Below are positions 3,636-42,925 of a stretch of DNA of 64,000 nt, piece after piece. The position numbers and the translations under genes are program-made. Within the stretch, counting starts at the first letter, position 1. Each line of letters starts with the position of its first letter. The notes below the pieces were generated by a model, which was given only the letters and a program-made list of their open reading frames with translations, searched no databases and had not been told where the DNA came from. Origin of the DNA: Candidatus Zixiibacteriota bacterium (GTDB lineage: Bacteria; Zixibacteria; MSB-5A5; GN15; JAAZOE01). The stretch is taken from NCBI GenBank assembly GCA_043819555.1, contig JBDREQ010000025.1:1-64000 (forward strand). The letters run 5' to 3'.

Positions 3636-3664
3636 TTGACAATTTCTGGCTAAATGCTTAACTT
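3636..3664 (+). promoter_or_regulatory. sigma70-type promoter of the porU-like operon
   Basis: TTGACA-N17-TAACTT. Confidence 0.6.
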
Positions 3665-3853: not shown

Positions 3854-6800
3854 ATGGTTTTTTTTGTGCTAAAAAGAAACGCGCTCACATTTTTAGTTCT
3901 TATCTTGCTCTCATTCACATGGGTCTCGTTCTGTCGAGCTGATTCTTCAAGTAATGCCCATTATCCCGATTTTGAAATCGACTATATCGCCGATGACCAT
4001 ATTTTGATAAAATATTCCCCCTTATATTCAAAAGATTTTTCATCAGTTAGACGATTGGCGCGGCATAATTATAATGGGAATGAGGTTTTTGGTCGCTCGG
4101 TATTGATTGCAGTTCCCGAGAATGGAGAAGTGAGTTTCACCTTCAATTTTAGTAAAGTTGGAGTATTCAGCTTTAATAATGCAGGCGAATATGCATCCGA
4201 ACAATTGCCATTGGTGGTCAAACATTCTGAGTTCAATGCCCGGGGGCATAGAATTGTCAGAATGCTGATTTTCCCTCAGAGAATGGAAGAAACCGGGCTC
4301 GGCGCGTATGATGATTTTACGATTGATGTTTATTTCACCAACACCATGCGCGAATCTTCGCCGTTTGAAAAGCAAACGCGGCTGGATTCTCTATTGGCTC
4401 GGACCGTGATAAATGGAAAACAGCTTTTTTCTTTCGGTTCTTCCCGAGAAAATATGACGGCATATAAGCCGTTGGAATCTAATTTTGGAAACGCGACGCG
4501 TTGGTTGAAAATCGCGGTCGATGAATGCGGAATATATCGAATCAATGGAAATGACTTGATCACTGCCGGCGTTAATTTGTCAGGTCTGTATTCTGATTCA
4601 TTACGGTTGTTTTATGGCGGTGGGAAAAATCCTCCGATTGGATTTTCCGAACCATTGCCGGAGTTGAATGAAATTCCTGTGGATATAATTGATGGAGGAG
4701 ACGGTCTCTTCAATTCGGGCGATTATATTCTGTTTTATGGTCAGGCGGTAAATCGATATGATTATTCACAGAATCCGCCGGGTTACATCAGGAATATTTA
4801 TAATCGGCTGAATTATTACTGGCTGGCGGTTGGAGGGGATTATTCATCTCCACGTAAGCGCTGGAGGCATATCAATTCCGAAATCGGAACGCCTGATTTG
4901 ATCTTAAACAGCTTTAGACAATTAAAGATGGTTGAACAAAATCATGATTTACGGATTGATACTGATGGACATATCCGCGATTATTATACCTGGTACTGGT
5001 CGAATATGCCGAATGTTACGGCATCTTTTAGTCTGGAAAATCCGATTCATGACGATATCATAGAGATTGAAATGGCGGCAATTACCAATTTTTCGGGTAC
5101 GACCCTGGTACTGAATGGAACCGATATGACCCGAACGACCGGTTCGGGAAATGTTTATAAATATGTTGTTGATTCTGACGCCGGTGCGGCTGGATTGAAT
5201 ACGGCTCAAGTTTCGTTGCAGCCGAATATTCGTGGAAGCTATCTTGATTATTTACGCGTTAATTATCCTCAGAATTTAGAATATGCCGGCGGCCAATTGT
5301 CATTCAGTTCATATACTTATTCGGGATTGATTAGATATCATATTGAAAACGTTTCCGCGTCGCAGAGCATATTGGATATTACTTTTCCGGATGATCCGGC
5401 CATAATTGAAAATATCAATTTCACTGGTAATGCGGCAGAATTTCAGATGATGGCAGCAGATGACGTTTTGAGCTTTGTACTGTTTTCCGAAAATGACGCT
5501 TTGCGGCCGGAATGGATAAGAAATTGGGAAGGCGCAAATTTACACAATGATATTTCTCAATATGATTGTATCATCGTTTACCCGGCAAGCTTTCATAGCG
5601 CGATGGGAGAATACGTTTCTTATCGGCATGGGCAAGGGTACGGCCTGAAGCTTGTCGCCGTGGAAGATATATATGATCAATTCGGATTCGGCCTTGAATC
5701 TCCTCTGGCGATACGCAATTACCTGAAATTCGCTTATGAGAATTTCGCGCCCCCGGCCCCTTACGCTGTTCTATTGGTTGGCGACGGCCATTATGATTTT
5801 CTGGATAATATGGGGCATCATTCTTCTTCATATCTGCCGCCCTTTATCTGGGAAGCGGAGCAATCGGCGGGTGATGATAATTTCGTTTATTTTGGCGATA
5901 TCGGAATGCTTGATTCAGACAGTAGTTATGTTTTTAATTCCGATCGAGGCTGGGATATGATGGTCGCTCGCTGGCCGGTTAAGTCAGCTTTTGAAATTTC
6001 CACATATATTGAGAAATTGAAGCGCTATGAATCAGATGACACCCGTGGCATCTGGAGAAGTAAAGTTACTTTTGTGGCCGATGATGAATTTAAAAGCGAT
6101 TATACAGGAGAGATAATTCATACCGCTCAGGCTGAAACGCTGGCGGTGTTTCATACGCCTCCTGAAATTACGAAGCGAAAAATTTATGCCACTGAGTACT
6201 CTTTCGCTTCCAGCGGCGAAAAGCCAATGGTCAATGACGCCATTGTCAAAGCGATAAATGAAGGGACGCTGATAATCAATTACATCGGGCATGGCTCTCC
6301 TGATGTCTGGGCCGATGAGCATATATTCAAGAAAGATTCCGATCTGGGGCGATTGCGCAATATAGATAAACCAGCCATTGTAATAGCCGGTTCATGTTCT
6401 ATTGGGAAATTTGATCAGCCTTCGAAAGAAGGAATGGCGGAGATGATGTTTCGCCAGGAAAGCGGAGCGATTGAAACAGTCTCGGCAACACGATTAGTTT
6501 ACGCAAGGGACAACGCGATTTTTAGTTTTGATTTGTATGATGCCGTTTTTGACGGTTCAAAAAATATAACGGAAGCGGTGTTTACGGCCAAACTCCTGCA
6601 TCAATATGAAAGATCGGGGCAGGTTAATCTTTTGCGCAACGACCGCTCTTATGTAGTTTTTGGCGATCCTCTCGGAGACCTGGGAGCGCCCGAATATAAA
6701 ATAAAAATCACTCCGACCGCAGCAAGCACGCTGGTGCCATTGGAGGATTTTGAATTTTCCGGGGAAATCGTTGATGACAATGACAATATTATCGTAGCAG

Positions 6801-7741
6801 ACGGACTGGTCAACGCCGAAGTTTTTGACTCTCGGTTCGTTCGCCATCATCCCGCGGGGATTGATTATTCTCTCGGCGGTCCTCGGATTTTCAGCGGTAC
6901 TTTCGAAGTTAGTTCCGGACGATTCGAAGGAGGATTCATTGTCCCCCTGGATATTGATTATGGAGGCGAAGCCGCTCAGATTACATGTTTCGGATCATTT
7001 GGTGTCGGCTCCGCTCTGGGAAGCCTCGATTCTCTTGAAATCTCTCAGTCCGCCGGAACAACAACGGATAATTCCGGTCCAATTATTGAATATAGTTTCG
7101 AGGAAAACCCTGATTTTGTCAACGGCGGGAGAATTCCATCACAGGCGACCTTAGTTTTAAATATTGCCGATAATTCGGGAATTAATCTAACCGGCGGATT
7201 GGGGCATCGGATAGAATTGACAATCGACAACGATAATAACTCGACTCTGAATTTAACGGATAATTTCGTTTATAATCAGGGCAGCTATCGCGAAGGTCGA
7301 ATAAGTTATCGTCTGCCGGAATTGACGCCGGAAAGGCATATTTTCAAAGTAAAAGTATGGGATAATGCCAATAATCCGGGAATAATCGAGTTTGAAGCTT
7401 TGTCATCTCAAGTTGGAAGTATCGCCATTCACAATGTTCTAAACTATCCCAATCCGATGGAAGAATCGACTGAATTTTATTTTGAATTGAGTGAACCTGC
7501 GGAATGGGCGGAATTAAGGATATTTACTCTGGCGGGACGCCAAATAAAAAAACTCCGTGAATCGGATTTGAACTCCGGTCGAAATCGGCGCTTCTTTTGG
7601 GATGGGCGCGATCTTGACGGCGACCGTATCGCCGAAGGAGTATATCTCTATAAAATTTCGATAAAAGGAAAGGTGTTTTCCAGCGGGAGAAATACCGATA
7701 ACTTGACAGAAGCATTTGGTAAATTGATTCTACTGAACTAA
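3854..7741 (+). CDS. porU: PorU-like peptidase C25 (type IX secretion sortase-like) with C-terminal CTD/FlgD-Ig domain
   Basis: Signal peptide; GIYRI, DYILFYGQ, LLVGD, NYIGHG (His) and GSC (Cys) dyad, FGDP, SGINLTG.GHRIEL.ID, KVWDNANN; tail NYPNP...WDGRDLDG..IAEGVYLYKI. Confidence 0.8.
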   Translation: MVFFVLKRNALTFLVLILLSFTWVSFCRADSSSNAHYPDFEIDYIADDHILIKYSPLYSKDFSSVRRLARHNYNGNEVFGRSVLIAVPENGEVSFTFNFSKVGVFSFNNAGEYASEQLPLVVKHSEFNARGHRIVRMLIFPQRMEETGLGAYDDFTIDVYFTNTMRESSPFEKQTRLDSLLARTVINGKQLFSFGSSRENMTAYKPLESNFGNATRWLKIAVDECGIYRINGNDLITAGVNLSGLYSDSLRLFYGGGKNPPIGFSEPLPELNEIPVDIIDGGDGLFNSGDYILFYGQAVNRYDYSQNPPGYIRNIYNRLNYYWLAVGGDYSSPRKRWRHINSEIGTPDLILNSFRQLKMVEQNHDLRIDTDGHIRDYYTWYWSNMPNVTASFSLENPIHDDIIEIEMAAITNFSGTTLVLNGTDMTRTTGSGNVYKYVVDSDAGAAGLNTAQVSLQPNIRGSYLDYLRVNYPQNLEYAGGQLSFSSYTYSGLIRYHIENVSASQSILDITFPDDPAIIENINFTGNAAEFQMMAADDVLSFVLFSENDALRPEWIRNWEGANLHNDISQYDCIIVYPASFHSAMGEYVSYRHGQGYGLKLVAVEDIYDQFGFGLESPLAIRNYLKFAYENFAPPAPYAVLLVGDGHYDFLDNMGHHSSSYLPPFIWEAEQSAGDDNFVYFGDIGMLDSDSSYVFNSDRGWDMMVARWPVKSAFEISTYIEKLKRYESDDTRGIWRSKVTFVADDEFKSDYTGEIIHTAQAETLAVFHTPPEITKRKIYATEYSFASSGEKPMVNDAIVKAINEGTLIINYIGHGSPDVWADEHIFKKDSDLGRLRNIDKPAIVIAGSCSIGKFDQPSKEGMAEMMFRQESGAIETVSATRLVYARDNAIFSFDLYDAVFDGSKNITEAVFTAKLLHQYERSGQVNLLRNDRSYVVFGDPLGDLGAPEYKIKITPTAASTLVPLEDFEFSGEIVDDNDNIIVADGLVNAEVFDSRFVRHHPAGIDYSLGGPRIFSGTFEVSSGRFEGGFIVPLDIDYGGEAAQITCFGSFGVGSALGSLDSLEISQSAGTTTDNSGPIIEYSFEENPDFVNGGRIPSQATLVLNIADNSGINLTGGLGHRIELTIDNDNNSTLNLTDNFVYNQGSYREGRISYRLPELTPERHIFKVKVWDNANNPGIIEFEALSSQVGSIAIHNVLNYPNPMEESTEFYFELSEPAEWAELRIFTLAGRQIKKLRESDLNSGRNRRFFWDGRDLDGDRIAEGVYLYKISIKGKVFSSGRNTDNLTEAFGKLILLN

Positions 7742-7785
7742 ATGGAAGAAATTTGTTCTAAATAAACTTATTGGAGATGGAAATT

Positions 7786-10461
7786 ATGAAAAAGGCACAC
7801 ATTCTGTTAATTTTCACCATCGCATTATTATCGACCTCACAATCGGTTCTGGCAGTATCCGACGCGGCGGTATTATATCTGCGGGTTGCCGCGGGAGCTC
7901 GCCCGGGAGGAATGGGAGAAGCATTTGTGTCCGTGGCCGATGACGCTACGGCCACCTATTGGAATCCTGCCGGTTTGGGTAACGCTCCTATCGCGGGAAT
8001 GCTGAAAACGGAGAAGTTTCCATCTCGGTTTGGCGAAGTTTCGGATGTAATTACGCTAAAGAGAAGCACCGGCCTGGAAAACTGGTTTATTGCCGGAAAT
8101 AACCTTGTCATGTATGATGGAAATTCATGGAAAACCGGCAAAGAATACGTGACCTCATCTGATCAGTCATTAACGGATTTTGTCAACAGTATCGTTTCCA
8201 TAAAAAGTGATGAACAGGGTGAGTTGATGGCGCGCAAAATCGTTGCGGTAAACTGTTCGATTACCGAAGCCGAGGTTAACAGTTTTATCGAATCGGTCAG
8301 GGAAAATATACCTGGTGATTATAAAGAACTGGAAGTATTAAATAGAGGGCTTGATACTCTTGCGGCCGGATATAAGCTTTGTCTTCTCAAGCCGGATCGA
8401 TTCAAAGATTTGAGAAACAAATTAAATGACGGTCTCAAAGATAAAGCGATAACTTCTGATGAAATGGATCGCATTACTTTTTCGATTGACCAGGCAGTGT
8501 CGCGTTTTCTCCCCGGTCGTCTAACGGTACCTTTCTCGTCGGCTATTGACGGTAATTTAACATGCCTGGGCAAAACCAAGGAATATCTCTGGGTTGGAAC
8601 CGATATGGGTTTGTTTCGTTTATCCGGTATGCAATGGGCCAATTTTACGACCGACGAAGGATTACCCTCCAATGAAATTACCGTATTAAGCGATGCCGGA
8701 GACCATATCCTGATAGGAACTGCCAATGGTTTGACCAAGTATTTTCATGGCACGTTTGATATCTACGAATCGCTTCCTTCGGGTTTGGTGCAGGCCGTTA
8801 CAATGGCCTCACCGACTCACGCCTATGCCGTAATCGATGGCATAATTTATAGTTTCAATGGTACGGAATGGTCGGATAGTTATGATTACACGGTGCGCAT
8901 CGATGATTCGATTGAAGATATCGCGCGCCGATCGGCCATCTATGGGACGCCCTCCGAAGTGGAAAAATTAATTGCCCGCATTCGGGAATTGAACGCAACC
9001 TCGGAACAGATGACAACTGAAGAAGTCTCACCGGATGCCGAACCGGCAACGGAGATTGATGAAACTTCGGTCAATGAGGAACGAATCGAAGTTGCTCCCA
9101 TAGAAACCACTTTGAACTTTTGGTTTACTGAGGGCAATGTCATCCAGATACCTTATACGGCCGGATTGAGATTTGATGCGACCGCGATGGCGGTAGATCT
9201 ATCCAATAGACTTTGGATTGGTACAAAAAGCGGCCTTCTTTCATTTGAGGGAAATAGATGGACACGGCATGGATATGTTGAATTTTCGGTACCCGCCGGA
9301 GACGCTGATGGCGAAGCGGCAACTATGACTGCATCGGATATTGCAGCCAAATTTATACCCGACAATAACCCCGATAAAATTGCCGTTCTGGATTCAAATA
9401 TAAGCGATTATAATGACCTCGGCGATGAGGCGGTAGAGCCGGGCCGGACGGTTTATGTTTATAACTCAAACATCGGTTCTTCAATTCGGTCAATTGGATT
9501 TGTTCATAACGAAATATATGTGGGAACCGAATATGGTTTGGAAATGAAAAATTCTTCAGGCTGGGAACCGGTTGATTTTGAAGACCTTGATCGCAAGCAG
9601 GTTATCGACTGTTATAATTATGATGGCCAATCATATTATGTATCAACCGATGGGATCACGAGCGAAAGCAAGGGGAAACGTGAATTTGTATTTATGCATG
9701 TCAACTGGCTGCCGTCGTTTAATCTCGATATCTATTATGATTTCGCGTCATATGTTCATCATAAACGCGGTCTTGGAACATTTGGCCTGAGCATAATTTA
9801 TCTGAATTACGGCAGTATTCCCGGTACTGATGCAAGTGGGGCGGAAACGATTGTCCTTAATCCGTTTGAAATCGCCATTTCGGCATCGTACGGCACTTCC
9901 ATAAACTCCAGACTTAAATGGGGTATGACAGGAAGATTTATTCATTCTCGTTTATCTCCTCAGGGCGCCGGAGCGGAAATGGGTGAAGGTATCGCTTCAA
10001 CCTTTTCGGTGGATATGGGCATTCTCTATATAATATCGCGGAAGTTTCAATTCGGCGCGGCGCTAACCAATGTCGGCCCTGATATCACGTACATTGACGC
10101 CGATCAGTCGGATGCTTTACCCCGCAATATTGGCCTGGGATTGTCTTATAAAGTATGGGACAGCCCATATAACAGCCTGTTGGTTCAGGGTGAATTAAAC
10201 AAAATCCTGGTTGGAGTTGATCGCGATTTTGGCACAGAAGCGGAATATGCCATTCGTCATATCGGAGCTGAATACTGGTACGCCCAATTTATTGCTCTGC
10301 GGGCCGGATATAAATATGATAAAGAAGGACAGGTCAAGCATCTGACATTTGGAGCCGGGCTGAAATTGAATTTACTACGTATTGATTTTGCATATGTGCC
10401 GTCTTCAGTAGATTCGCCACTGGCCAATACATTGAGGATTTCGGCCACGGGAACATTTTAA
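7786..10461 (+). CDS. PorV/PorQ-family outer-membrane barrel with large internal beta-propeller/LysM-like insertion
   Basis: N-terminal YLRVAAGARPGGMGEAFVSVADDATATYWNPAGL; barrel resumes at FMHVNWLP near 9676; terminal Phe; insert has LWVGT.xGL repeats. Confidence 0.75.
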   Translation: MKKAHILLIFTIALLSTSQSVLAVSDAAVLYLRVAAGARPGGMGEAFVSVADDATATYWNPAGLGNAPIAGMLKTEKFPSRFGEVSDVITLKRSTGLENWFIAGNNLVMYDGNSWKTGKEYVTSSDQSLTDFVNSIVSIKSDEQGELMARKIVAVNCSITEAEVNSFIESVRENIPGDYKELEVLNRGLDTLAAGYKLCLLKPDRFKDLRNKLNDGLKDKAITSDEMDRITFSIDQAVSRFLPGRLTVPFSSAIDGNLTCLGKTKEYLWVGTDMGLFRLSGMQWANFTTDEGLPSNEITVLSDAGDHILIGTANGLTKYFHGTFDIYESLPSGLVQAVTMASPTHAYAVIDGIIYSFNGTEWSDSYDYTVRIDDSIEDIARRSAIYGTPSEVEKLIARIRELNATSEQMTTEEVSPDAEPATEIDETSVNEERIEVAPIETTLNFWFTEGNVIQIPYTAGLRFDATAMAVDLSNRLWIGTKSGLLSFEGNRWTRHGYVEFSVPAGDADGEAATMTASDIAAKFIPDNNPDKIAVLDSNISDYNDLGDEAVEPGRTVYVYNSNIGSSIRSIGFVHNEIYVGTEYGLEMKNSSGWEPVDFEDLDRKQVIDCYNYDGQSYYVSTDGITSESKGKREFVFMHVNWLPSFNLDIYYDFASYVHHKRGLGTFGLSIIYLNYGSIPGTDASGAETIVLNPFEIAISASYGTSINSRLKWGMTGRFIHSRLSPQGAGAEMGEGIASTFSVDMGILYIISRKFQFGAALTNVGPDITYIDADQSDALPRNIGLGLSYKVWDSPYNSLLVQGELNKILVGVDRDFGTEAEYAIRHIGAEYWYAQFIALRAGYKYDKEGQVKHLTFGAGLKLNLLRIDFAYVPSSVDSPLANTLRISATGTF

Positions 10462-10463
10462 GT

Positions 10464-10490
10464 TGATAAGGGGATGAATTCCCCTTATCA
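10464..10490. other. Intercistronic perfect 11-bp hairpin
   Basis: TGATAAGGGGA-TGAAT-TCCCCTTATCA, no U-tract. Confidence 0.7.
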
Positions 10491-10517
10491 TTGCTCACAA
10501 AATTAAAACATCATGGG

Positions 10518-13500
10518 ATGATGATTAAAAAAACCTTATACGCTATCAGCATCGTTGTTCTGCTCGGCGGTTATTTGCTCGCCAATGATGTCCTCAGAAT
10601 AAAAGACAAGCAGACAATTATTAACGCCGACGAAATTACCGGTAAAAAAGAGTTTTATTCAGGGCGAGCTCAGGAGAATTTCCTGAGACTGAAACGGGAT
10701 AAGCCGTACGGTCTGCCCAAAGCGGCGTTATCGGCCGATATGGTCGATACTATCACTATCCTCGCGCTTCGCATCGGTTTTGTATATGAGGCGGCCGATA
10801 ATCCGACGACCACCGGTCGGGGAAACTTCGATATCCGCGACAGCGCGACGTTTGTCAATGATGAAGGCCACTGGCTCGACCCGGCACCTCATAACAAGCA
10901 TTATTTTGAATCTCATTTGAGGTCGTTGAGCCATTACTGGTCGGTTGTCAGCAAAGGCAAAATTCATATTGAATACGAAGTCTGGCCCGTCGGCGCCGAT
11001 AACGATACCAATTACTACCTTTTGGGGCATGCTATGGATTATTACGGCGCCCAGCCTCCGAATTTTGGTCTGGGCGAGTTTTTCCATAATGCCATAACAA
11101 AAGCGTATGATATCGACGGTGATAATTTCGAATTCCGAGATACGCGGGGCAATAAGAAAGCAATTATTTTGTTTCATGCCGGGGCGGATCGCCAGACTGA
11201 TTTGTCGTTTTCGGCCACCCCGACGCCCAATGATCTTTTTACCGGATTCGTTACTTTTGATTTGGCCAATGCATTAGTCCTTGATAACGACACTATCGTC
11301 GAAGGCATCATTATGCCCGAGACGATGGCTCAGGATAATCGCATCACGGTCATGAATGCCGTCATGGCGCATGAGTTTGGGCATCAACTGGGCTTAATCG
11401 ATCTTTATAATACGGGAAGTTCGCCATTTTTGAGCCAGATGGGTGATTTTGCCCTGATGGATAATAATGGTTTGAATACGGCGGCGTACATTGATGAATA
11501 TGGAACGGGCGCGTTCGGAACCGTGCCAATTTTCCCCTGCGCCTGGTCGCGCGCTTTTCTGGGAATTGACGAAGTGGCTGAATATCGTGAAGGAACATCG
11601 ATTGAACTGGCGGCGGTGAAGATGGAGACGGAAAACATCAAGATCGTCAAAATTCCAATATCCGCAACCGAATATTATCTTCTTGAAAATAGACGGTCCG
11701 ATATTGATGGAAATCTCGACGGGCTCCGGGTTGACAGCACTTCCAATGTTGTTTTGTGGCCGGTAAAAGTCCAGGAGATTCTCGATGGTGACAGCGTTAT
11801 ATTAGTTAAAACTCCGGTTCCCGAATATGATGTTTATCTCCCGGGCAGCGGTGCTGGGATAGCAATCTGGCATGTTGATGAAGCGGTCGCGGCGATGGAT
11901 TATTATCCATTCGATATTCATGACAATAATTTTCAGGCAAATACTCTGCAATGGGATCGCAACCGTCGCTTTGTCAGATTAGTTGAAGCGGACGGGCTGA
12001 TCGATTTTGGAGGAAATTATTCTCGCGGCTACGGATTTGCGGAAGATTTGTTCTATCGAGGCAATAACACTACCTTTGGTTCATATACCAATCCTCCATC
12101 AAAGGCAAACAGCGGCGGATATACTCATATAAAAGTTGAAAACATATCCAATGCGGAAATGGTAATGACTTTCGATATCGTCAAAGAAAAGATGGCGGAT
12201 AATTTTCCCCGGAGGATGTCAATCCCCAATGATCCCGATTTATCTCCTGTTGCCGCTGACTTGGACGGCGAGGGCAATAAGGAAATTATTGCCGTTTCAG
12301 GAAATAAAATACTGGCGGTGACGTCTGGCGGCCGGGACTTTATGGATCCTTATGATTCGCTTCCTGACAATGATATGATTTTGAGCGGGATAAATATCAA
12401 TACTGATATAAACACGTTTCGTCCGACGGATACTCAGTATGCTTCAATGCCTCTGTTTGCCCAAATACCTCTTGGCAATATTTCCACCAGGCCGGTTGTG
12501 ACAAAGATTCTGGATACGACCTTGGTTTTTGTCGGAGCGAGTAATGGCTGGATTTATTCATATCTGCCGTTTACTGATGTGACGACTTCACCGGCGAAAT
12601 ATCGAGCCAAGCTCCATTCGCTTCGTTCTCTGCAGGGCTCGGTCGATGTCAATTCAATCATAGTTGACGAGGAGAATAATATCATCTACGGTTTTTATTC
12701 TGATGGAAATATTCTGGCCGCGCCGTATGACAGCATTGCTTCGTTTGTCCAGCCGACTTTCGCGCGAATGCCGATGATTGTCGGCGTGTGTGAGTATGGC
12801 GATGGCATGGCGATTCTGTATGATAGGAACGACTATTCGATTTTGTATCAAGCCCGATTCGCGCCATTTGTCGATTTGAACAGTTCATTTTTTGCCGACA
12901 GTGTGGTAATTGACAGGACGGATTTCAAAAGATCTCCAGTAGCGTCGGATTTTAATCGTGACGGGATTGATGAGATTATTATCGTTTCGGAAAACGGTCA
13001 GGTTCTTGCTTACAGTTTTACGGCAGGTGGAATGGTTGCTTATAGTGAACTGAATTTGCAAACCGGAGATACGGTCGCATCTGATCCAGCCATTGCTGAT
13101 ATGAATGATGATGGATTCCCGGAACTTTATATTCCCGGGATCAATAAGATATATGGATATGATAGAAGGGGAACGATCGTTTCCGATTTTCCCCTGGATA
13201 TAGATTTTAATCGACCCGGTCAGGTCATAATTGGCGGGCCGATTATATCTGATATCAATGGCGACAATATTGCTGATGTGGCCATAATCGGTTTGGATTC
13301 AATCCTCAATAAGCGAACGATACCGGCCTTTTATATCATGTTTCCCGATACAATTAACTATCCCGATTCGGTAATTGTCGTCGATACGGTTTTGGATTAT
13401 GCCTACTACAATTATTACAGCAATCTCTATGCGATCACGCCCGGATACGGTATTCTGCCGGGTTATCCGATTCCGGCGGGGATGCTGGGAATGAGACAAG

Positions 13501-14003
13501 TCACTGATACTGTCAACGGCATCGGTACACCGCTTCATGTCCAAAACGGTTCCGGCGGATTATTGATTACATTCGGCGGAGATGGATGGATGGATGCCTG
13601 GGATTGCGGCTGGTCGGATATCAAGGCCGGATGGCCGATGAGCGGCGGCTACGCCGACGGTTCGGGATATATGCCCTTAGATTCTTTGGGACAGGAAAAA
13701 ACGCTGGCGGAATTGCTTCCGGAATCGAGTTTCTATAACTATCCCAATCCGGCTTCCGGTGAAAAGACGACGATTAGATTTTATGTTAATCAGCCGGCGC
13801 GAGTTACGATTTCGATGTTTGATGCAACCGGCGATATGGTTGAGGAAAAATCTGCCGACGTTGCCGACGGCAACCGCAATGTCGAGATTGACTGGTATTT
13901 ATCGGGAGTCGCTTCGGGTATTTACCATTGCCGGATCGAAGCGGCGCCGGTCGCGGGCGGCGATACGGAAGTGGCTTTTACAACCATTGCGGTAGTCAGG
14001 TAG
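10518..14003 (+). CDS. Secreted M6 (immune inhibitor A-like) metalloprotease with FG-GAP/VCBS repeats and CTD
   Basis: HEFGHQLGLIDLY zinc motif, YYLLENR, IWHVDE; DxNxDGxxEI repeats; tail YNYPNP...VASGIYHCRI. Confidence 0.8.
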   Translation: MMIKKTLYAISIVVLLGGYLLANDVLRIKDKQTIINADEITGKKEFYSGRAQENFLRLKRDKPYGLPKAALSADMVDTITILALRIGFVYEAADNPTTTGRGNFDIRDSATFVNDEGHWLDPAPHNKHYFESHLRSLSHYWSVVSKGKIHIEYEVWPVGADNDTNYYLLGHAMDYYGAQPPNFGLGEFFHNAITKAYDIDGDNFEFRDTRGNKKAIILFHAGADRQTDLSFSATPTPNDLFTGFVTFDLANALVLDNDTIVEGIIMPETMAQDNRITVMNAVMAHEFGHQLGLIDLYNTGSSPFLSQMGDFALMDNNGLNTAAYIDEYGTGAFGTVPIFPCAWSRAFLGIDEVAEYREGTSIELAAVKMETENIKIVKIPISATEYYLLENRRSDIDGNLDGLRVDSTSNVVLWPVKVQEILDGDSVILVKTPVPEYDVYLPGSGAGIAIWHVDEAVAAMDYYPFDIHDNNFQANTLQWDRNRRFVRLVEADGLIDFGGNYSRGYGFAEDLFYRGNNTTFGSYTNPPSKANSGGYTHIKVENISNAEMVMTFDIVKEKMADNFPRRMSIPNDPDLSPVAADLDGEGNKEIIAVSGNKILAVTSGGRDFMDPYDSLPDNDMILSGININTDINTFRPTDTQYASMPLFAQIPLGNISTRPVVTKILDTTLVFVGASNGWIYSYLPFTDVTTSPAKYRAKLHSLRSLQGSVDVNSIIVDEENNIIYGFYSDGNILAAPYDSIASFVQPTFARMPMIVGVCEYGDGMAILYDRNDYSILYQARFAPFVDLNSSFFADSVVIDRTDFKRSPVASDFNRDGIDEIIIVSENGQVLAYSFTAGGMVAYSELNLQTGDTVASDPAIADMNDDGFPELYIPGINKIYGYDRRGTIVSDFPLDIDFNRPGQVIIGGPIISDINGDNIADVAIIGLDSILNKRTIPAFYIMFPDTINYPDSVIVVDTVLDYAYYNYYSNLYAITPGYGILPGYPIPAGMLGMRQVTDTVNGIGTPLHVQNGSGGLLITFGGDGWMDAWDCGWSDIKAGWPMSGGYADGSGYMPLDSLGQEKTLAELLPESSFYNYPNPASGEKTTIRFYVNQPARVTISMFDATGDMVEEKSADVADGNRNVEIDWYLSGVASGIYHCRIEAAPVAGGDTEVAFTTIAVVR

Positions 14004-14023
14004 GATTTTATGAGGATGCATCT

Positions 14024-14932
14024 ATGAATACGAGGTTTGTTTCAAATTGTATTTTTATTTTGCTGGCATGTGTATGTACCTGTTCTCTATCTATTGCCAC
14101 AGATGAAATAAATCCTCCTTATTTAAACTCTGAAACAGGATTTTCGATCAGCCAATACTTAAATGAAATCAATTCTTATTCAACACTGGCATTAAATGAT
14201 GGCGATGGAGATAATAATGGCAAGACTCTGAATTTTCGTGAGAGCGTTCCAAAAGAAAAAAAATCTATTGGAAATAAAAGCCCGGTCAAAGCCTTCATAT
14301 ATTCGGCAATAATTCCGGGAGCGGGACAATTGTATAACGGCTCCAAAATTAAAGCTGTAGCGTTTTTGGGACTGGAAACGCTGGCGTGGACAGGCCATGT
14401 GATTTACAGCGGCAAGGGCGATGATAAGACGGCGGAATTTGAAAACTACGCCAATACCAATTGGAGCGAGGATAAATATGTGTCATGGCTTGAATTTAAT
14501 TGGCAGAAATCGGATGATGAACTGGTTTTGAATACTAATGGTTTTCCTCTCTTCACACATCACTTGCCAGACACTAAAACTCAGCAATATTACGAGATGA
14601 TTGGCAAGTACAATCAGTTCGTTTATGGCTGGGCAGATGCGGGAGATGTGGAGACTTCTCCATTTCAGGAGGCGCACCCTGACACATATTCGGCGATGCG
14701 TTTACATTATGAGTCGATGCGGCATGATGCTAATAAATTGTATGATAAGGCGACGACCTCGATTGTGGTCTCAATGATTAATCATGTTATATCCGGATTT
14801 GAAGCGGCCATTGCGGCCCGAAGCCATAACAAAAACGCAGATACGATCGCAAATAAGATATCGGTTAAGGCTCAAACGGCGCAGTTGAACGATGAGTATT
14901 TCCCGATGTTAACCATGGCGTATAAATTTTAG
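14024..14932 (+). CDS. DUF5683-like exported/membrane protein 1
   Basis: KSPVKAFIYSAIIPGAGQLYNG motif; signal peptide from ATG 14024 (SD GAGGA); ends LTMAYKF. Confidence 0.6.
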   Translation: MNTRFVSNCIFILLACVCTCSLSIATDEINPPYLNSETGFSISQYLNEINSYSTLALNDGDGDNNGKTLNFRESVPKEKKSIGNKSPVKAFIYSAIIPGAGQLYNGSKIKAVAFLGLETLAWTGHVIYSGKGDDKTAEFENYANTNWSEDKYVSWLEFNWQKSDDELVLNTNGFPLFTHHLPDTKTQQYYEMIGKYNQFVYGWADAGDVETSPFQEAHPDTYSAMRLHYESMRHDANKLYDKATTSIVVSMINHVISGFEAAIAARSHNKNADTIANKISVKAQTAQLNDEYFPMLTMAYKF

Positions 14933-14938
14933 GACGAT

Positions 14939-15724
14939 ATGAAAAAGATATTTTTTACAATGGCGTTAGTCTTTTTGGTTTTTGCGAGTAATTGCCTGGC
15001 GGCGAAATTCGCTTTTAATTCATCGAAAGTAATCAAGCCGATTCCTCCGGTTTCAGGTCAGTTTCTTTTGTCAGGCCAGAACGATACCGGCAAGACTTTT
15101 CTCGATATGTCTCAACCTCAATCGGAAAAAAGTAAATTATCCATGAAGAAGGCTTTGTTTTTATCCATTCTTCTCCCGGGGGCAGGAGAATACTACGCCG
15201 GTTCAACGTTTAAGGGCCAGGTATTTATGGGAGTCGAAGCCGCGATCTGGGGCGGTTTTATAGGTTACCGTGTTTACGGCGCGTGGAAAAAAGATGATTA
15301 TCTTTCGTATGCTTCGGCTTACGGCGGAGTCAATATTTCCGATAAAGATGATGTTTATTTTGACATGATTGGATTTTACGATAATCGAGAAGAATATAAT
15401 CAGTATGGACGGCTCTATCATCCCGACCGGCCTTATTACCCGGATGCCGATGACTACGATTGGCAATGGGATTCGGAAGAGCGGCGTTTGAAATACAAAG
15501 AATTGAAAGATCAAGCCAAGACGGCTCTGCGCAATTCCACATTTTTAATCGGACTGGCAATCGCCAATCGGGTTGTTTCGGCTATTGATACATATCGGAC
15601 AGTAAAATCGGCTTCGAAAAGGATCAGATCACTGACCCAATTCGGTGAGTATCATATGAAGATAGCCCCAAAAATATTTAGAAGTAATCCCGAAGTCAAA
15701 TTGACTTTGACGCGGAAGTTTTGA
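14939..15724 (+). CDS. DUF5683-like exported/membrane protein 2
   Basis: KALFLSILLPGAGEYYAG; paralogous to the upstream gene (Y.DMIG.Y core); ends LTLTRKF. Confidence 0.6.
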   Translation: MKKIFFTMALVFLVFASNCLAAKFAFNSSKVIKPIPPVSGQFLLSGQNDTGKTFLDMSQPQSEKSKLSMKKALFLSILLPGAGEYYAGSTFKGQVFMGVEAAIWGGFIGYRVYGAWKKDDYLSYASAYGGVNISDKDDVYFDMIGFYDNREEYNQYGRLYHPDRPYYPDADDYDWQWDSEERRLKYKELKDQAKTALRNSTFLIGLAIANRVVSAIDTYRTVKSASKRIRSLTQFGEYHMKIAPKIFRSNPEVKLTLTRKF

Positions 15725-15725
15725 T

Positions 15726-16691
15726 ATGCGGCCGGCGGCAATTATCTGTCTGATAATTCTTGTTTCATGCGGTGGCCAAGCTCCGCCGCGTACTCCGGAT
15801 AATACCAATATCTCGAGGTCAGGTTTCGTTTCTCTCGTTTTTGAAAATAAAATTTCCGGACGGATATTGACGCACGAGTTGTCGCGTCCATCCGGCCTGG
15901 CAATAGATTCACGAGGCGATATTTATATAAGCGATCATGGCAATCATCGCATAATAAAGCTTAATCGAGATTTATTACCGCTTCGTGATTACGGCGGCTA
16001 TGGAGCGGGCATGGGGCGATTGCAAAATCCTGATGATTTATTCGTTGATCGTTTGCTCAATTTGTACGTACTTGATACCGGAAACAGGCGGGTAGTGCAT
16101 CTTGATGCCAATCTTAATTTCGTCGAGGAAATTATCCCGGAAGATGATCCCGAAGAGATTATATCAACGCTGACGAATTACGCGGGTTTGGCTGTTTCGC
16201 CGACCGGGGAATTGACGGTAGTCGATTATGATAATTCTCGACTAATCAGGCTGGATAATTTTAATCATTTTAGCCGATACATTGGCGATTTTGGCTATGG
16301 CCTGGGAACGCTTCTTAATCCCAAATCAATGGCGCTTGATAAGGACGGCAATCAATACGTGGCCGATTTGGGCAATAAAAGAATCGCCGTTTTTGACGAT
16401 TATGGGAATTTCATAAGGCAAATCGGAAATCAAATCCTTAAAAGTCCGGAAGCGGTCGCGATTGGATACAATGGTGTGATCTGGGTGTCAGATAGTCAAT
16501 CAGGGACACTTTTCGCTTTTAATAATGTCGGTAAGCTTATTTTTGACGGCCCTATGGAATCTAATCAGGGAACAAAATTGAGAAATGTGCAAGCCCTGAT
16601 AGTAACGCCCGATAACAAATTATTCATTGCCAACACCGATAATAATGAAATCTTAATATACCGTGTTATTTATGAGGCCGATAAGGATTAA
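15726..16691 (+). CDS. NHL-repeat beta-propeller lipoprotein
   Basis: Lipobox LVSC; repeated P.G/D.A.D..G.IY.xD.GN.RI. Confidence 0.8.
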   Translation: MRPAAIICLIILVSCGGQAPPRTPDNTNISRSGFVSLVFENKISGRILTHELSRPSGLAIDSRGDIYISDHGNHRIIKLNRDLLPLRDYGGYGAGMGRLQNPDDLFVDRLLNLYVLDTGNRRVVHLDANLNFVEEIIPEDDPEEIISTLTNYAGLAVSPTGELTVVDYDNSRLIRLDNFNHFSRYIGDFGYGLGTLLNPKSMALDKDGNQYVADLGNKRIAVFDDYGNFIRQIGNQILKSPEAVAIGYNGVIWVSDSQSGTLFAFNNVGKLIFDGPMESNQGTKLRNVQALIVTPDNKLFIANTDNNEILIYRVIYEADKD

Positions 16692-19600
16692 TCCGGCGAG
16701 ATTTCAAAAAGCCCTTTTTATATTATTGGCAGCCGTCATATATATTTTTCCAAATGCCGCCTCGCGTGCGGAATATATCAGCATAAGATTTGTAATTCAG
16801 CCAATGGATATCCCGGTTCAAACTGATTTGGCGCCATTTGCGGAAGGTTCTGATTCCATTTATTGCGGGGGCAGATTACTGAATCGGGATTTAGACTATC
16901 GCCTTCATCATCGCACCGGCAATCTGAAAATTTTGACTGAGATGGATTGCGATAGTATTGATGTCCGTATTTTTCGGCTTCCCAAATGGATGTTTGAATC
17001 TTTGGGGAATATTCCGGGGGAAGGTAAGAAATTTATCAGTTTACCAGGTGTCTCAGCCAAAAATCAAACGGTTCGCGGGGGTGGGGGGGATGTGAAAAAA
17101 ATCAATCTGTCCGGAAGTAAATCATTCGCGTTCAATGTCGGCCAAACGGGCCAGAGTAATTTCTCCCAGGGATTATCGGTTGACTTCGATACGCGCATTG
17201 GTTCAGGTTTAGAAATCAGGGGATCTGTTTCCGATAAGGCCAGTCCTGTTAATAATCCGGCGGGTCCGGGCGGATCGACAACGCTGCTATCAGAACTGGA
17301 TAAATACTATTTTGAGATCAGAGGACGGCGATTGACTGCTCAGGCAGGGGATATCCTCTCGATATCAAACACATACTTACCGCAAAAACGAATTATGGGA
17401 GTAGCAAGTGTTTTTAAATCTGATCATTATAAATCAGCGGTTTCAATTGGGCGACCAGCGGGTAAGTTTCATATAGCTCGCATCAGAGGCGGTGATGGTA
17501 AACAGGGACCTTATCAGGTAAATGGCCGGGGAGGTGTGCCGGTTTCAATTGTCGCGGGTTCGGAAAAAGTCTATGTCGATGGCCAGCTCCTCGAAGGACG
17601 AACCGATCGCCATTACGTGATTGATTATGCCGCCGGGAGAATTACGTTTTCACCGGGGACATTGATAACATCGCGAAGCCGCATCGAAATTGATTTTGAG
17701 GAAGCTGATAATAAATACCAGCAAGCTATTTATGAATTGTCCCAGGAACTAAATCTGCTCAATGAGCGATTGAGATTATCATTTGGAGGAAGGCGCGAGG
17801 TGGATGAAAAAGACAGATTGAGATTTTTGTCTTTGAGCCCGGCCGATATCGTTGGCCTGTCGGCTGCGGGAGATTCGACTTCGAATGCTTTTCAAAGCGG
17901 TGCCGCGGCCGATTCGGCTGGAGAATATGAACTTATTACAGATACTACAGGTACACAGTATTACAATTTTGTTGGGAGGGGAAACGGGGGATATTCGGTT
18001 CAATTTTCATTTGTCGGGGAAGACCAGGGCGACTATATCCGCCTTGGTGAAAATATATTCCAGTTTACGGGAGCCGGGCAAGGTGACTATTTACCGGTTA
18101 GATTTTTACCTCTGCCGGCATCAAACAGTTTTTTCTATTCAGCCGCGGAAATAAGACCGTATAATGATGGCAAAATTGCCATTGAATATCACGGCAATGA
18201 CCGCGATGAAAATTTGTTTTCCAGTATCGACGACGAGGATAACTATCGCGGCCAGATTAAAACAGTTTTTACACATCATAATGAAAATTTGCGTTCGGAA
18301 ACGTCATTAAGGTATCAGAGCGCAAACTACAATCCTGTCTATAGAGTCGATGTTCCCGATAATAATCGGATGTGGGCGCTTCCCGAGGGGAGTATTAGCG
18401 GCGACGAATTTCGAATTGAATCTGAGCAGAGGATAACATTCCCTAAGCATGCATTTATACTTGATGGGGGCATTATTAATTTTGGGAAAAGCCTGAAGTC
18501 GTATCGAATAAATTTCGGTGGTAATCATTTTATTGAAAGCTTCGTTAGCCCTCGATATTCTTACCAGATGGGGCATACGCATAATAAAATTCTGAATGAG
18601 ACAAAAGGATTGTTTGAAAAATATTCGGGAGGCATGTTCATCAAAGGTCCACGAACAATTCGGATGGAGGTCGATTATTTCCAGGAGCTGACAAAGGATT
18701 TATATGGGGATAAGCCTGATATAGAAAAATATACTGAATACAAATCGACATTATTCATTCGCAATAGCGTCGTGGCTTTATCTCGTCGATTGGATTATCA
18801 AAGCGATGATTACGGCCGCAAGGGTCCCCGGCTTGACAAAGTGACGATTAATTCGGATGAAAATCTGGGACGGCTCAGGCTTAATCTTACAGGCACGCTT
18901 CTCAATCAAAAGCGTCTCGATTCATTTCGTGAAGATCGCACGGCAAGGATGTTCGCGACAGCCGCGCGATATCTGGCCCCCGACGGATGGCTTTCCCTTC
19001 AAGCGGATTACCGTCAAAATAGCGAACAGGGGAAATCATCGGAATTCAGATATATAGAAGTTGAGAGCGGGCAGGGCAATTATCGGTTTGAAGACGGTCA
19101 GTATTTTTTTGATATTGCCGGCGATATTATCAGGATTCGGCAGGAAGTCGGGCAGGCGGCCTCGATTACCCGTGGAGAAAAATCTCATAATTTGACTTTC
19201 AACCCGGGAAGAGCGAGGTTTTTGACAAAATTAAGTTCCTGGCTTGACCAGTTTTCTTTTCGGATGAGATCCGAAATTATCGAAGAAGCTTCGGGTAAAG
19301 ACAAAAGGCATCTATCATGGATTTTGCCGTGGACAAGCCAATCCGGTGTAGATTATATCAATCGCGCGCGCCGGGAACGATACACATTCTTATTATTTCC
19401 CCGATTAAATTTCTATGTGATGAATTTTATTTTCACTCACAATTTCAGCGAACAGGACGGCGGACGGTCAGTATTTAAAGATACAAAAAACTACAATGCC
19501 GAAATAAAAAACGCCATTTCCTCTGCGCTGAACTCAATCCTGAAATATAATCATGGCCGTACGGAACAGAGAGGAGGGGGCTTGATTCCCGCCAGGTTGA

Positions 19601-19989
19601 GAACGTCCTCATATGGATGGGCTTTATTATATTTTGGAAGTCAATTTCAGATCACGCCTGAACTGGAATATATCCGCTTTAATGAGGAGGAAAATGGAGG
19701 ACGGGGAGTAGGATTGGCTGCCAAGCTTGAGGCCATTGCCAGGTTTTCCGGCCGGGGTGAATTTCGCATCAGGGGGGAATTTCGAGATTTGTCAGAGAAA
19801 GAAAGGTTTATCGCCTCCGAGTATTTTGTCACCGACGGCAATCGGTTCGGAAAATCAGGGCATTTTTCAATGATAATAAATTATAAAATTGGAAAGACGA
19901 TGAGGATAACCGGAAGTATGAGGAATAGATTTTTTGAAAATCGAAAATCTGAATTTACGGGTCGAGGTGAATTGATTGCGTTGTTCTAA
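16672..19989 (+). CDS. Large (~1105 aa) predicted outer-membrane beta-barrel protein of unknown function
   Basis: Signal peptide, alternating beta-strand pattern, terminal Phe; GSEKVYVDG..L.....YVIDY..GRITF module (weaker copy near N-terminus). Confidence 0.65.
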   Translation: MRPIRINPARFQKALFILLAAVIYIFPNAASRAEYISIRFVIQPMDIPVQTDLAPFAEGSDSIYCGGRLLNRDLDYRLHHRTGNLKILTEMDCDSIDVRIFRLPKWMFESLGNIPGEGKKFISLPGVSAKNQTVRGGGGDVKKINLSGSKSFAFNVGQTGQSNFSQGLSVDFDTRIGSGLEIRGSVSDKASPVNNPAGPGGSTTLLSELDKYYFEIRGRRLTAQAGDILSISNTYLPQKRIMGVASVFKSDHYKSAVSIGRPAGKFHIARIRGGDGKQGPYQVNGRGGVPVSIVAGSEKVYVDGQLLEGRTDRHYVIDYAAGRITFSPGTLITSRSRIEIDFEEADNKYQQAIYELSQELNLLNERLRLSFGGRREVDEKDRLRFLSLSPADIVGLSAAGDSTSNAFQSGAAADSAGEYELITDTTGTQYYNFVGRGNGGYSVQFSFVGEDQGDYIRLGENIFQFTGAGQGDYLPVRFLPLPASNSFFYSAAEIRPYNDGKIAIEYHGNDRDENLFSSIDDEDNYRGQIKTVFTHHNENLRSETSLRYQSANYNPVYRVDVPDNNRMWALPEGSISGDEFRIESEQRITFPKHAFILDGGIINFGKSLKSYRINFGGNHFIESFVSPRYSYQMGHTHNKILNETKGLFEKYSGGMFIKGPRTIRMEVDYFQELTKDLYGDKPDIEKYTEYKSTLFIRNSVVALSRRLDYQSDDYGRKGPRLDKVTINSDENLGRLRLNLTGTLLNQKRLDSFREDRTARMFATAARYLAPDGWLSLQADYRQNSEQGKSSEFRYIEVESGQGNYRFEDGQYFFDIAGDIIRIRQEVGQAASITRGEKSHNLTFNPGRARFLTKLSSWLDQFSFRMRSEIIEEASGKDKRHLSWILPWTSQSGVDYINRARRERYTFLLFPRLNFYVMNFIFTHNFSEQDGGRSVFKDTKNYNAEIKNAISSALNSILKYNHGRTEQRGGGLIPARLRTSSYGWALLYFGSQFQITPELEYIRFNEEENGGRGVGLAAKLEAIARFSGRGEFRIRGEFRDLSEKERFIASEYFVTDGNRFGKSGHFSMIINYKIGKTMRITGSMRNRFFENRKSEFTGRGELIALF

Positions 19990-21652
19990 GCTCATATTTA
20001 TTTTATTCGCATTTATATGTCTGGGCGTAAATGTTTGCTCGGGCAAATATTTGGTTGAATATATCGAGACTGCTCCCGATAAATATATTATACCCAAAAT
20101 TGATAAAATTGCGGCTACTATTGGCGAAAGTAGTATTTCAGATACTATTGAGGCCATTCTATCTTCTTCCGGATATTATAATGCCAAAGTTTTCATCACC
20201 GATTCAATGATTACGATTGATGCGGGGAAGTTGTCATTTATTGGTCAGATAAATCTTGAGATAATTAAACCCGCAGGTGAAATATTAAGTAAGCAAATCG
20301 ATCAAATGGCCGGTGTCATTGCATCAAAGGAACATATCGATTCCGTCAAATCAGAGATTTTATTTGTATATCAAGAGAAAGGGTATTTCTACGCGTCATT
20401 AAACACAGTGAATGTAATGTATGATGACAATTTATTAGAATTTAATTTGAGACTTTTAACCGGTCCTCTAGTTAATCTGGATCGAATCAGGTTTAAAGGG
20501 CTTGCCAAAACATCTCCCGGTTTTGTCGAAAAATTATCTGGGCTTAAACAGGGAGATGCCCTGATTTTTTCTCATATCGAAAGAGCCGCAGAAAAAATAA
20601 ATAATAGCGGGTACTTGCTTGTCGATACAATTCCATCGGTAATCCCGAATCAGAATTATGATGGAGTGGAATTGATTTTCAATTTATCTGAATTGAAGAG
20701 TAACCAGATTGAATTTGCCGGAGGTTATTTACCTGGGCGTGGTGACAGGAAAGGTGAGTTTGTCGGTTTTTTGAATTTCAAATCAAAAAATATATTTGGC
20801 GGGGGCCGCCGAATTGATTTATTAATTGACCGTAAGGATAGGTTGTCATCAAGGATCGAATTCGGATATATTCAGCCGTTTTTTATACCCGAACTGTTGG
20901 AGATTTCCGGACGTTTTCGGCAAATTGACAACGGTGATTTTTACTATCTTTTTACAATTGAGGCGGCGCTTGCGATTCAATCCGGAAAACATGCCAAATT
21001 GACCGGAGAAATTTCATGGACAAAGACCGAGCCTCAAAATTTATCTCAACCGCCTTCGCGGGCATGGACGGGAAATATCTCTTATCTGCATTCCAATCTT
21101 TATGATATGCTGAATCCAATGAAGGGGAACTCGTTCGAGGGAAATATTTCATATATTCGCCATATCAGCTGGCCGGATTCCGTCGCAACGGGTGTGGTCA
21201 ACAATGACAGCAAATTTTCCGCTGCGCTGAATAATTATATTCCGCTTGCCAATCATTTTGTCTTTCGCCTGAGTCTGGAAAGTCAGGTTTATATTACATC
21301 CCGTAAAGTTATTGATTTCTCGGAGCAATTCAGGCTCGGCGGATTCGCGTCGCTGAGGGGATATCGGCAGGAGCAGTTTTCAGGAATGCGAGTAGCTTTG
21401 GGGCAGGCGGAATTGCGCTACCGGCCTTCTGCCTTCGCATCATTATATATGTTTTCGGATTTAGGCTATATCTATTCTCGAGAATTGATTTCGGAATACA
21501 ATCTGATAACTATAGAACTTTTCAAACCGGGCTTTGGAGTAGGAATATTCGCGGCAAGGTCGAATACATCAGTAACACTCGAAGCGGGCTGGGGCGAGGG
21601 CGATAATTTGGGGCAGGGGAAACTTCATTTTGGTTTACAGACCAAGTTTTAA
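19976..21652 (+). CDS. Omp85 (BamA/TamA-family) protein with POTRA domains
   Basis: KGYFYA POTRA motif, NIFGGGR, LGGFASLRGY (VRGF-like loop 6), HFGLQTKF beta-signal. Confidence 0.8.
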   Translation: MRCSKLIFILFAFICLGVNVCSGKYLVEYIETAPDKYIIPKIDKIAATIGESSISDTIEAILSSSGYYNAKVFITDSMITIDAGKLSFIGQINLEIIKPAGEILSKQIDQMAGVIASKEHIDSVKSEILFVYQEKGYFYASLNTVNVMYDDNLLEFNLRLLTGPLVNLDRIRFKGLAKTSPGFVEKLSGLKQGDALIFSHIERAAEKINNSGYLLVDTIPSVIPNQNYDGVELIFNLSELKSNQIEFAGGYLPGRGDRKGEFVGFLNFKSKNIFGGGRRIDLLIDRKDRLSSRIEFGYIQPFFIPELLEISGRFRQIDNGDFYYLFTIEAALAIQSGKHAKLTGEISWTKTEPQNLSQPPSRAWTGNISYLHSNLYDMLNPMKGNSFEGNISYIRHISWPDSVATGVVNNDSKFSAALNNYIPLANHFVFRLSLESQVYITSRKVIDFSEQFRLGGFASLRGYRQEQFSGMRVALGQAELRYRPSAFASLYMFSDLGYIYSRELISEYNLITIELFKPGFGVGIFAARSNTSVTLEAGWGEGDNLGQGKLHFGLQTKF

Positions 21653-22543: not shown

Positions 22544-22646
22544 CAGAAATTAACATTTTTTTGAAAACTTTTCCATACTTTCACTGTATAATTGTCCTTA
22601 GTCGAAGATTTAAAAGAGCTTCACTATTTTTGGAAGTGATTATTAA

Positions 22647-23549: not shown

Positions 23550-23561
23550 AGTGGAGGATAT

Positions 23562-24551: not shown

Positions 24552-24557
24552 GCCGCT

Positions 24558-28466: not shown

Positions 28467-28476
28467 GCATGATACG

Positions 28477-42748: not shown

Positions 42749-42925
42749 TTTTCGCCTTCTTTATCGTTTAACCATGTCCAATCACAATTTGAGTACCAAT
42801 CAAGTTGTTTTGGTTCTTGACGATTTTAAAATGGAGAGTATATTAATTAATAATACTCCTCACTGCCGTATAGATATCGTATCTATTTGAAATATTTACT
42901 GGGCTCAGCTGCCTTGGAGAAGATA

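Follow-up and report, generated by a model that had tools for sequence, protein, structure and literature searches.

In type IX secretion systems (T9SS), the motor is thought to be essential for pulling cargo off the SprA translocon. The closest described relatives of the locus treated here are the P. gingivalis Attachment Complex PorU-PorV-PorZ-PorQ, as set out in the available part of PMC12365241, and the F. johnsoniae SprA-PorV-SprE-SkpA translocon, as set out in the available part of PMC10994853 (PDB 6H3I, 8GL6, 8GL8). According to the accessible portion of its report, TXSScan detected T9SS in Bacteroidetes only (10.1101/031039), and SprA has been noted in FCB phyla beyond Bacteroidota in a source whose accessible supplements hold no match to 'Zixi' (PMC12611786). 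Here we describe an operon at positions 3854-21652 of the window, meaning the whole 64,000-nucleotide stretch of DNA that was analysed (contig JBDREQ010000025.1, Candidatus Zixiibacteriota bacterium). The operon is probably the sorting and attachment module of a T9SS in which GldKLMN were not found, with a wall-tethered PorV and a separable barrel-Omp85 pair that is likely a second SprA-like channel.

The eight genes are co-oriented on the + strand, with gaps of 44, 29, -46, 6, 1, -29 and -14 nt between successive open reading frames (ORFs). These coordinates, together with family scans, bear out the tight packing that a first-pass annotation of the same DNA had described. Families were assigned by bit score against family cut-offs (NF033707, NF033709, TIGR04189 and others), the Gld models being built on Bacteroidota, and signal peptides on the operon proteins were judged by eye from sequence, without a predictor. 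The operon contains the following features:

3854..7741, + strand: PorU sortase, a C25 peptidase with His813/Cys848 and its own type A C-terminal domain (CTD)
7786..10461, + strand: PorV orthologue, 891 aa, with N-terminal hatch, insert and 14-strand barrel
7993..9675, + strand: PorV insert (aa ~70-630, ~560 aa), a predicted beta-propeller with three LysM-like units
10491..14003, + strand: M6-family metalloprotease with FG-GAP repeats, type A CTD and intact zinc motif
13958..14932, + strand: DUF5683 protein A, above cut-off; its start may be later
14939..15724, + strand: DUF5683 protein B, above cut-off; paralogue of A
15726..16691, + strand: NHL beta-propeller lipoprotein, NHL above cut-off; lipobox LVSC by eye
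16672..19989, + strand: SprA-related outer-membrane barrel, 1105 aa, modelled with ~38 strands; two copies of the SprA Ig-like domain
19976..21652, + strand: Omp85-family protein, 558 aa, POTRA domain(s), above cut-off; accompanies the barrel

Sortase, carrier and linked proteins

The first gene encodes a PorU that scores 622.6 bits against an NF033707 cut-off of 420 (Peptidase_C25, E 8e-72). Its catalytic motifs, GHGS at residue 812 and GSCS at 846, supply a His813/Cys848 dyad spaced as in the P. distasonis enzyme, and it was the sole match to a P. distasonis PorU query at E<=1e-3 (E 1e-76). The PorU-like C25 enzyme with a His/Cys dyad that had been proposed here is thus upheld by both the family score and the motifs, and the sequence matches indicate that the PorU of a T9SS, catalytic His/Cys included, is present. 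As in the Attachment Complex and the P. distasonis pair, porV lies directly 3' of porU, and the two proteins share with P. gingivalis PorU/PorV a C25 sortase carrying its own CTD and a 14-strand FadL-like PorV.

PorV scores 231 bits against the NF033709 cut-off of 90, and 170.8 against the cut-off of 250 for the PorV equivalog NF033710. Its top Foldseek matches are solved PorV chains (8gl6_F, E 2e-16; 6h3i_F), and VIA structure comparison gave Z 25.7 and rmsd 3.3 over 271 aligned residues. The best match of P. distasonis PorV is this fused protein, with which it groups at a tree support of 0.81; the fused PorV also clusters with unfused Eisenbacteria PorV at 0.98. By sequence and model, we judge the fused protein to be a true PorV orthologue. 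The PorV-like barrel of the first-pass annotation therefore stands in fold and orthology but not in size, being 891 aa and not ~350 owing to a large insert.

An AlphaFold2 (AF2) model of PorV from 37 sequences (pLDDT 82) resolves the hatch, the insert and the 14 strands. In the model the insert is a propeller (matches at Z ~22) that carries three LysM-like units of beta-alpha-alpha-beta pattern, and a helical bundle accompanies one of them. At E<=0.05, Pfam LysM was found in 12 of 37 PorV orthologues (best E 4e-10) and Reg_prop in 17; neither LysM (PF01476) nor Reg_prop matched the window's own PorV. The insert is inferred to face the periplasm because its connection to strand 1 is at the short turns, the periplasmic side of such barrels, and PorV is likely tethered to peptidoglycan through it. 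P. gingivalis attachment complexes are positioned on PorKN rings, according to the available part of PMC12365241. Since such rings went undetected in Zixibacteria, the modelled wall tether is a plausible substitute for them.

The CTD-tagged protease predicted earlier is likewise supported, its Por_Secre_tail domain scoring above cut-off and its zinc motif, HEFGHQLGLID, being intact. HExxH is kept in 28 of 29 orthologue ORFs, the remaining one being cut by a contig end. Both DUF5683 proteins and the NHL lipoprotein named in the annotation also exceed their family cut-offs, the lipobox having been judged by eye. DUF5683 was detected in 24 of 28 orthologues of protein B, protein A has no relative in PDB, and an A-B complex prediction scored 0.00, which is evidence neither for nor against contact. 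Both proteins end in an amphipathic beta-hairpin with a terminal Phe. Because this hairpin resembles a BAM signal, the pair may be outer-membrane proteins despite their helical membrane segments. The lipobox Cys of the NHL protein is present in most orthologues, and the gene is absent from the operon in two genomes, G049 and G051.

Conservation of the gene order in relatives, which the first reading had made a test, is found in both Zixibacteria and Eisenbacteria. Of 12 Zixibacteria-like loci, 7 show all eight genes in order; in the remaining five, contig ends cut the locus or the ORF filter masked genes. The order is also complete in each of 10 barrel-bearing genomes (10 of 10) chosen from seven further families, two of which have one extra small gene. 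The run porU-porV-M6-DUF-DUF is unbroken in all 14 operons of a set read across genomes and in Eisenbacteria. The long form of PorV (857-1055 aa) occurs in 14/14 operons of this set; Eisenbacteria have the same gene order with a PorV of normal length (323-355 aa in two), and ubiA and bat do not follow. Five Marinimicrobia-type loci hold only parts of the propeller-barrel-Omp85 run; where DNA upstream is available, the run follows lepA/lgt, and the 10 kb upstream contain no porU.

The genome carrying the window (G000, an assembly 97% complete) was correctly placed outside Bacteroidota, in that named close homologues of the 1105-aa barrel and of PorV belong to Zixibacteria or the FCB group. The 12 closest loci are titled Zixiibacteriota (five), uncultured Ignavibacteriales (five), FCB group (one) and uncultured bacterium (one). 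We take the Ignavibacteriales titles to be loose labels because those loci carry this operon too, at 37-46% identity. The accompanying argument from TTGACA/TATAAT promoters fails. TTGACA is perfect at 3636-3641 and only 3/6 of the -10 hexamer is matched, 17 nt downstream; a promoter scan, which returned 62 sites where shuffled sequence had 45.2 +/- 7.4, was judged non-specific. The taxonomy is therefore drawn from homologue names. The site itself is listed for completeness:

3636..3664, + strand: possible sigma70-type promoter with perfect -35 and weak -10; putative, and not among the scan-listed sites

Translocon, cargo and the search for a motor

The other recognisable T9SS components are scattered through the genome. 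The gene for SprA (2022 aa) stands alone on a different contig (G000:C33:6505-12573) and scores 601.6 bits in TIGR04189 against a cut-off of 200, and SprA lies above cut-off in 120 of 121 Zixibacteria genomes, each at least 90% complete. These scores indicate that the SprA/Sov translocon is present. No motor candidate was seen in the sprA neighbourhood of G000, whose genes we take to be mostly housekeeping ones (recG, murB-like, M28-like peptidase, selA/selB-like). Type A CTD cargo also appears to be present, with 45 CTD proteins in G000 by TIGR04183 and 56 with a profile of our own. With SprA and most cargo encoded elsewhere, the operon is not the compact system of its own that had been envisaged.

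About a dozen PorV-family genes occur in G000, several directly 3' of a CTD-protein gene. Such a CTD protein followed by a PorV-like barrel is seen at G000:C20:102136-108551, C71:4085-11537, C25:181984-188144, C24:46098-50523 and, by eye, C64:10536-12211. Two of these pairs stand behind a TonB-dependent receptor gene, and the sets possibly represent SusCD-like units that have carriers of their own. By eye, a smaller class of CTDs can be told apart by its last strand; it includes PorU, the M6 protease (window 7441-7741 and 13700-14003) and, within the G000 CTD set, the PorZ-like protein, PorV-linked cargo and six ~850-aa paralogues.

Two further candidates have the expected layout. An SprE/PorW-like TPR lipoprotein at G000:C11:7319-10252 (L089:4320-7253) has an orthologue in all 41 phylum genomes searched; its C-terminus matched TonB_C in 16 of 25 pieces tested and also gave PDB TonB matches. 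A PorZ-like gene at G000:C1:32662-34869 falls below cut-off. It sits between lnt and glycosyltransferase-looking genes, a hint at the surface acceptor. Like the Attachment Complex, then, the Zixibacteria genome has a PorZ-like gene and PorV/PorQ-family paralogues outside the operon, and like the F. johnsoniae translocon it has SprA, type A CTDs, an SprE-like TPR lipoprotein and Skp beside bamA. It differs from the latter in its TonB-C-terminated SprE-like protein and in that GldL, GldM, GldN and Plug were not found.

No positive control rang in the searches for GldK, GldL, GldM, GldN and Plug. Under that limit, GldM was found in 0/121 Zixibacteria and 0/41 Eisenbacteria-phylum genomes, GldN in 0/121 Zixibacteria (and 0/5 genomes), Plug in 0/5 genomes, and GldL in 0/121 above cut-off, with one weak coiled-region match. 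GldK gave partial FGE-like matches of 87-119 bits in three of five genomes (G000: 87 of 350) and none in the other two; the single-contig genome G001 had no GldK or GldN match. PorP/SprF (PF11751) was not seen in G000 and matched weakly in 20 of 61 genomes, where the hits are probably cross-hits, several ORFs being of fused-PorV size. A crude hydropathy screen of G000 recovered ExbB-ExbD-TonB and TolQR loci and no convincing GldL-GldM-like pair. One run, G000:C5:358-7549, holds TPR, membrane-protein, ExbB, ExbD and two TonB genes and is a candidate energy source. Noted as missing from the window, porKLMN were, as regards GldL/M/N, not found by these searches in the whole genome or in 121 genomes of the phylum, and the proposed genome-wide search for sprA, porL/M/N and porZ returned sprA, a sub-threshold PorZ-like gene and no GldL/M/N. 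Judged by these profiles, the GldL/GldM motor and GldN ring subunit of a canonical T9SS are lacking, with remote copies possible.

A canonical, complete T9SS whose motor and ring have diverged past detection by hidden Markov models, with the operon as an ordinary attachment locus bearing lineage-specific extras, is the alternative that survives best, and we consider it unlikely. The remaining core components are all in place, divergence is already visible in SprE and PorZ, which score under their cut-offs, the Gld searches lacked a ringing control, and F. johnsoniae needs energy, according to the available part of PMC10994853. However, Bacteroidota-derived models do detect SprA, PorU, PorV and, partially, SprE, and the GldK model reaches FGE-like paralogues at 87-119 bits, whereas GldM and GldN yielded nothing in 121 genomes. 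G001, a single contig, has no GldK-like match, the topology screen of G000 found no convincing GldL/GldM-like pair, and Plug was unfound in five of five genomes.

The 1105-residue barrel and its Omp85 partner

The ~1100-aa barrel and Omp85 described at the 3' end of the operon are confirmed as a 1105-aa modelled barrel and a POTRA/Omp85 protein above cut-off. The 1105-aa protein has no Pfam match, no PDB sequence relative and, in two queries, no plasmid match. Its AF2 model from 67 sequences (pLDDT 86, pTM 0.75) has 38 long strands across residues 145-1104, counted from DSSP and not from coordinates, with long loops and short turns alternating. An amphipathy filter was passed by 31 of the 38 and by two strands outside the barrel (33 in total). 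Porin alignments reach both chain ends, so a closed barrel fits. The available part of one report (10.64898/2026.03.07.710327) gives SprA, with 36 strands, as the largest known barrel, and dismisses AlphaFold strand labels 38 and 40 as rare or wrong. The model predicts that the 1105-aa protein is among the largest outer-membrane barrels known, matching or exceeding SprA.

Several comparisons point to a relationship with SprA. Alignment by hhalign with 21 Zixibacteria SprA sequences finds the Ig-like domain twice in the barrel (aa 42-110 and 290-378; P 96% and 95%), and aa 138-272 match the first SprA barrel strands collinearly but weakly (P 4.8%). The match to TIGR04189 is weak, 26.7 bits over 55 aa (aa 295-349). 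Foldseek ranked SprA first (E 4e-9), and an Atlas search yielded clusters without names plus one SprA_N cluster (0.87), which is no more than a lead. Of these links, only the Ig-like domains are firmly common to both proteins by sequence. Like SprA/Sov, the protein has the Ig-like domain and a similar strand count; unlike SprA/Sov, it reaches half the length, has little of the extracellular cap, ~38 strands and an Omp85 partner of its own, and is dispensable. With a full-length match of ~2000-2400 aa absent, it appears to be related to the SprA/Sov family and not a member of it.

The operon Omp85 resembles BamA/TamA in its POTRA and barrel domains, its SLRGY loop motif and a nearby propeller lipoprotein gene; BamB is itself a propeller lipoprotein. 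It scores 66.8 bits in TIGR03303 (BamA) against a cut-off of 297, whereas the true BamA, elsewhere in G000, reaches 456.8. By this score and by the five POTRA domains expected of BamA, it does not appear to be BamA. Unlike BamA/TamA, it has no adjoining TamB gene, and its constant neighbour is the giant barrel. We also considered Fjoh_0402, a TamA-like F. johnsoniae protein without TamB, as the counterpart of this Omp85 beside a barrel; it was rejected, Fjoh_0400 and Fjoh_0401 being listed as cytoplasmic.

The barrel family is large, with 2219 unnamed clusters at E<=1e-30. Nearly full-length copies of the barrel occur in 56 of 61 Zixibacteria and matches in 41/41 Eisenbacteria-phylum genomes, and the best 120 of 4704 matches include relatives in Ignavibacteria and in unclassified 'Bacteroidota bacterium' records. 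Presumably the family also occurs in Bacteroidia proper.

The operon was read in four (G049, G053, G039 and G051) of the five barrel-less genomes, G018 being left out. Barrel and Omp85 are both absent from all four, one of which (G049) is a single contig, while SprA, PorU and many CTD-like matches are retained; the control genome G056 has the Omp85 orthologue. The NHL gene adjoins ubiA in G053 and G039, the second DUF5683 gene does so in G049, and in G051 the operon stops after the second DUF5683 gene. Independence of these losses was judged by family labels and not by a tree. Because four genomes with SprA and PorU are without both barrel and Omp85, gene content identifies them as one accessory unit and not essential subunits. 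The expectation that the uncharacterised genes are all needed subunits accordingly falls.

The same evidence makes it improbable that the operon is a self-contained export and attachment machine, with the 1105-aa barrel, along with Omp85 and NHL, acting as translocon or needed subunit in place of missing parts. The barrel does carry SprA domains, models at SprA size and, in two phyla, shows tight linkage to porU-porV. Yet full SprA occurs in 120 of 121 genomes, four genomes with SprA, PorU and many CTD-like matches dispense with barrel and Omp85, no porU precedes the Marinimicrobia-type run, which follows lepA/lgt, within 10 kb, and the family also extends to Ignavibacteria and 'Bacteroidota bacterium' records.

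Downstream of the operon lies a gene that usually comes next in Zixibacteria:

21689..22543, + strand: UbiA-family prenyltransferase

The ubiA-like gene and a complete bat/MoxR operon (window 21689-32829) lie downstream in most Zixibacteria read, and not in the Eisenbacteria genome G002. Further along, at 35048-38512, are the bacillithiol biosynthesis genes bshC, bshA and bshB1, each above family cut-off. A dockerin-like C-terminal motif, sought with a rough regular expression, occurs in 47 proteins of G000, window 42887-45154 included.

Mechanism and meaning

In the mechanism that we propose, cargo that bears a signal peptide along with a type A CTD would pass through Sec and then SprA, a route whose genes are present and whose course is modelled on Bacteroidota. 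One of about a dozen PorV-family carriers, several encoded 3' of a CTD protein, would bind the CTD. PorU, held at the surface by the neighbouring PorV, would then cleave the CTD and join the cargo to a surface glycolipid with the aid of a PorZ-like helper. The predicted PorV propeller, through its three LysM-like units, would fix this PorU platform to the cell wall and replace PorKN positioning. In none of the operons read are the M6 protease and DUF5683 pair parted from porU-porV, and they are likely platform parts as their linkage suggests. Barrel and Omp85 would form one unit, in which Omp85 would most probably insert the barrel or sit at its flank, and secretion is apparently independent of the pair.

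How cargo would be released from SprA can be framed in three ways. Release could well need no dedicated motor and proceed by a cleavage/anchoring ratchet, to which we give slightly less than an even chance. A pull of the ExbBD/TonB type is considered because the SprE-like protein ends in a TonB-C domain, and is possible at a lower grade of confidence. Diverged GldLM would be an unlikely source of the power.

Several points weigh against our interpretation of the operon as the sorting module of a T9SS without GldKLMN. All support for it is genomic or modelled. Gld models built on Bacteroidota and run without a ringing control could miss diverged copies, and the SprE and PorZ candidates score 111 of 250 and 127 of 260 bits, below cut-off. 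Release from SprA in F. johnsoniae needs energy, contrary to a passive ratchet, according to the available part of PMC10994853. LysM matches occur in just 12 of 37 PorV orthologues and are missing from the window's own protein. Finally, the global fit of barrel to SprA is poor (TM 0.22, rmsd 30), and the 50 VIA rows listed do not include SprA.

That the operon is a general envelope-biogenesis unit, in which porU-porV are T9SS genes and the remaining six, from protease to Omp85, are outer-membrane genes with no tie to them beyond a common promoter, is very improbable: linkage is admittedly weak evidence here, with ubiA and bat likewise retained downstream in Zixibacteria, housekeeping genes surrounding sprA and a separable barrel pair, but the protease has its own CTD, the barrel has domains in common with SprA, and porU-porV-M6-DUF-DUF is unbroken in 14 operons and in Eisenbacteria, where ubiA/bat do not follow.

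The locus is real and conserved, and it resembles a T9SS attachment module in its working; it departs from the canonical system in that motor and ring were not found. Relative to the P. gingivalis Attachment Complex, it differs in the ~560-aa propeller-LysM insert in PorV, in the unfound PorKN ring, in the linked M6, DUF5683 pair, NHL, barrel and Omp85 genes, and in the dozen or so PorV-family genes of its genome. The literature searched, with most subscription papers and bioRxiv supplements outside its coverage, held no description of the operon, the PorV insert, the barrel or a motor-less T9SS, and nothing pairing type IX secretion with Zixibacteria.

A bolder and decidedly tentative extension is that Zixibacteria and sister phyla possess an older T9SS that lacks the rotary motor. 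Wall-tethered PorV-PorU would there replace the PorKN ring, and the SprE TonB-C domain would grip the carrier. The 1105-aa protein would be an SprA paralogue of 38 strands, exceeding every solved barrel in size, and with its own Omp85 would form a second, hitherto undescribed translocon of the outer membrane across the FCB superphylum.

A phylum with pore, carrier, sortase and dozens of cargo proteins but no detectable motor or ring makes the role of energy and the order in which the machine evolved testable. Candidate replacement parts are the operon's LysM-propeller PorV and DUF5683 pair, together with the TonB-C SprE. A member of a large barrel family without a name is encoded there too; the family is predicted to equal or surpass the biggest beta-barrel known and has an Omp85 partner dedicated to it.

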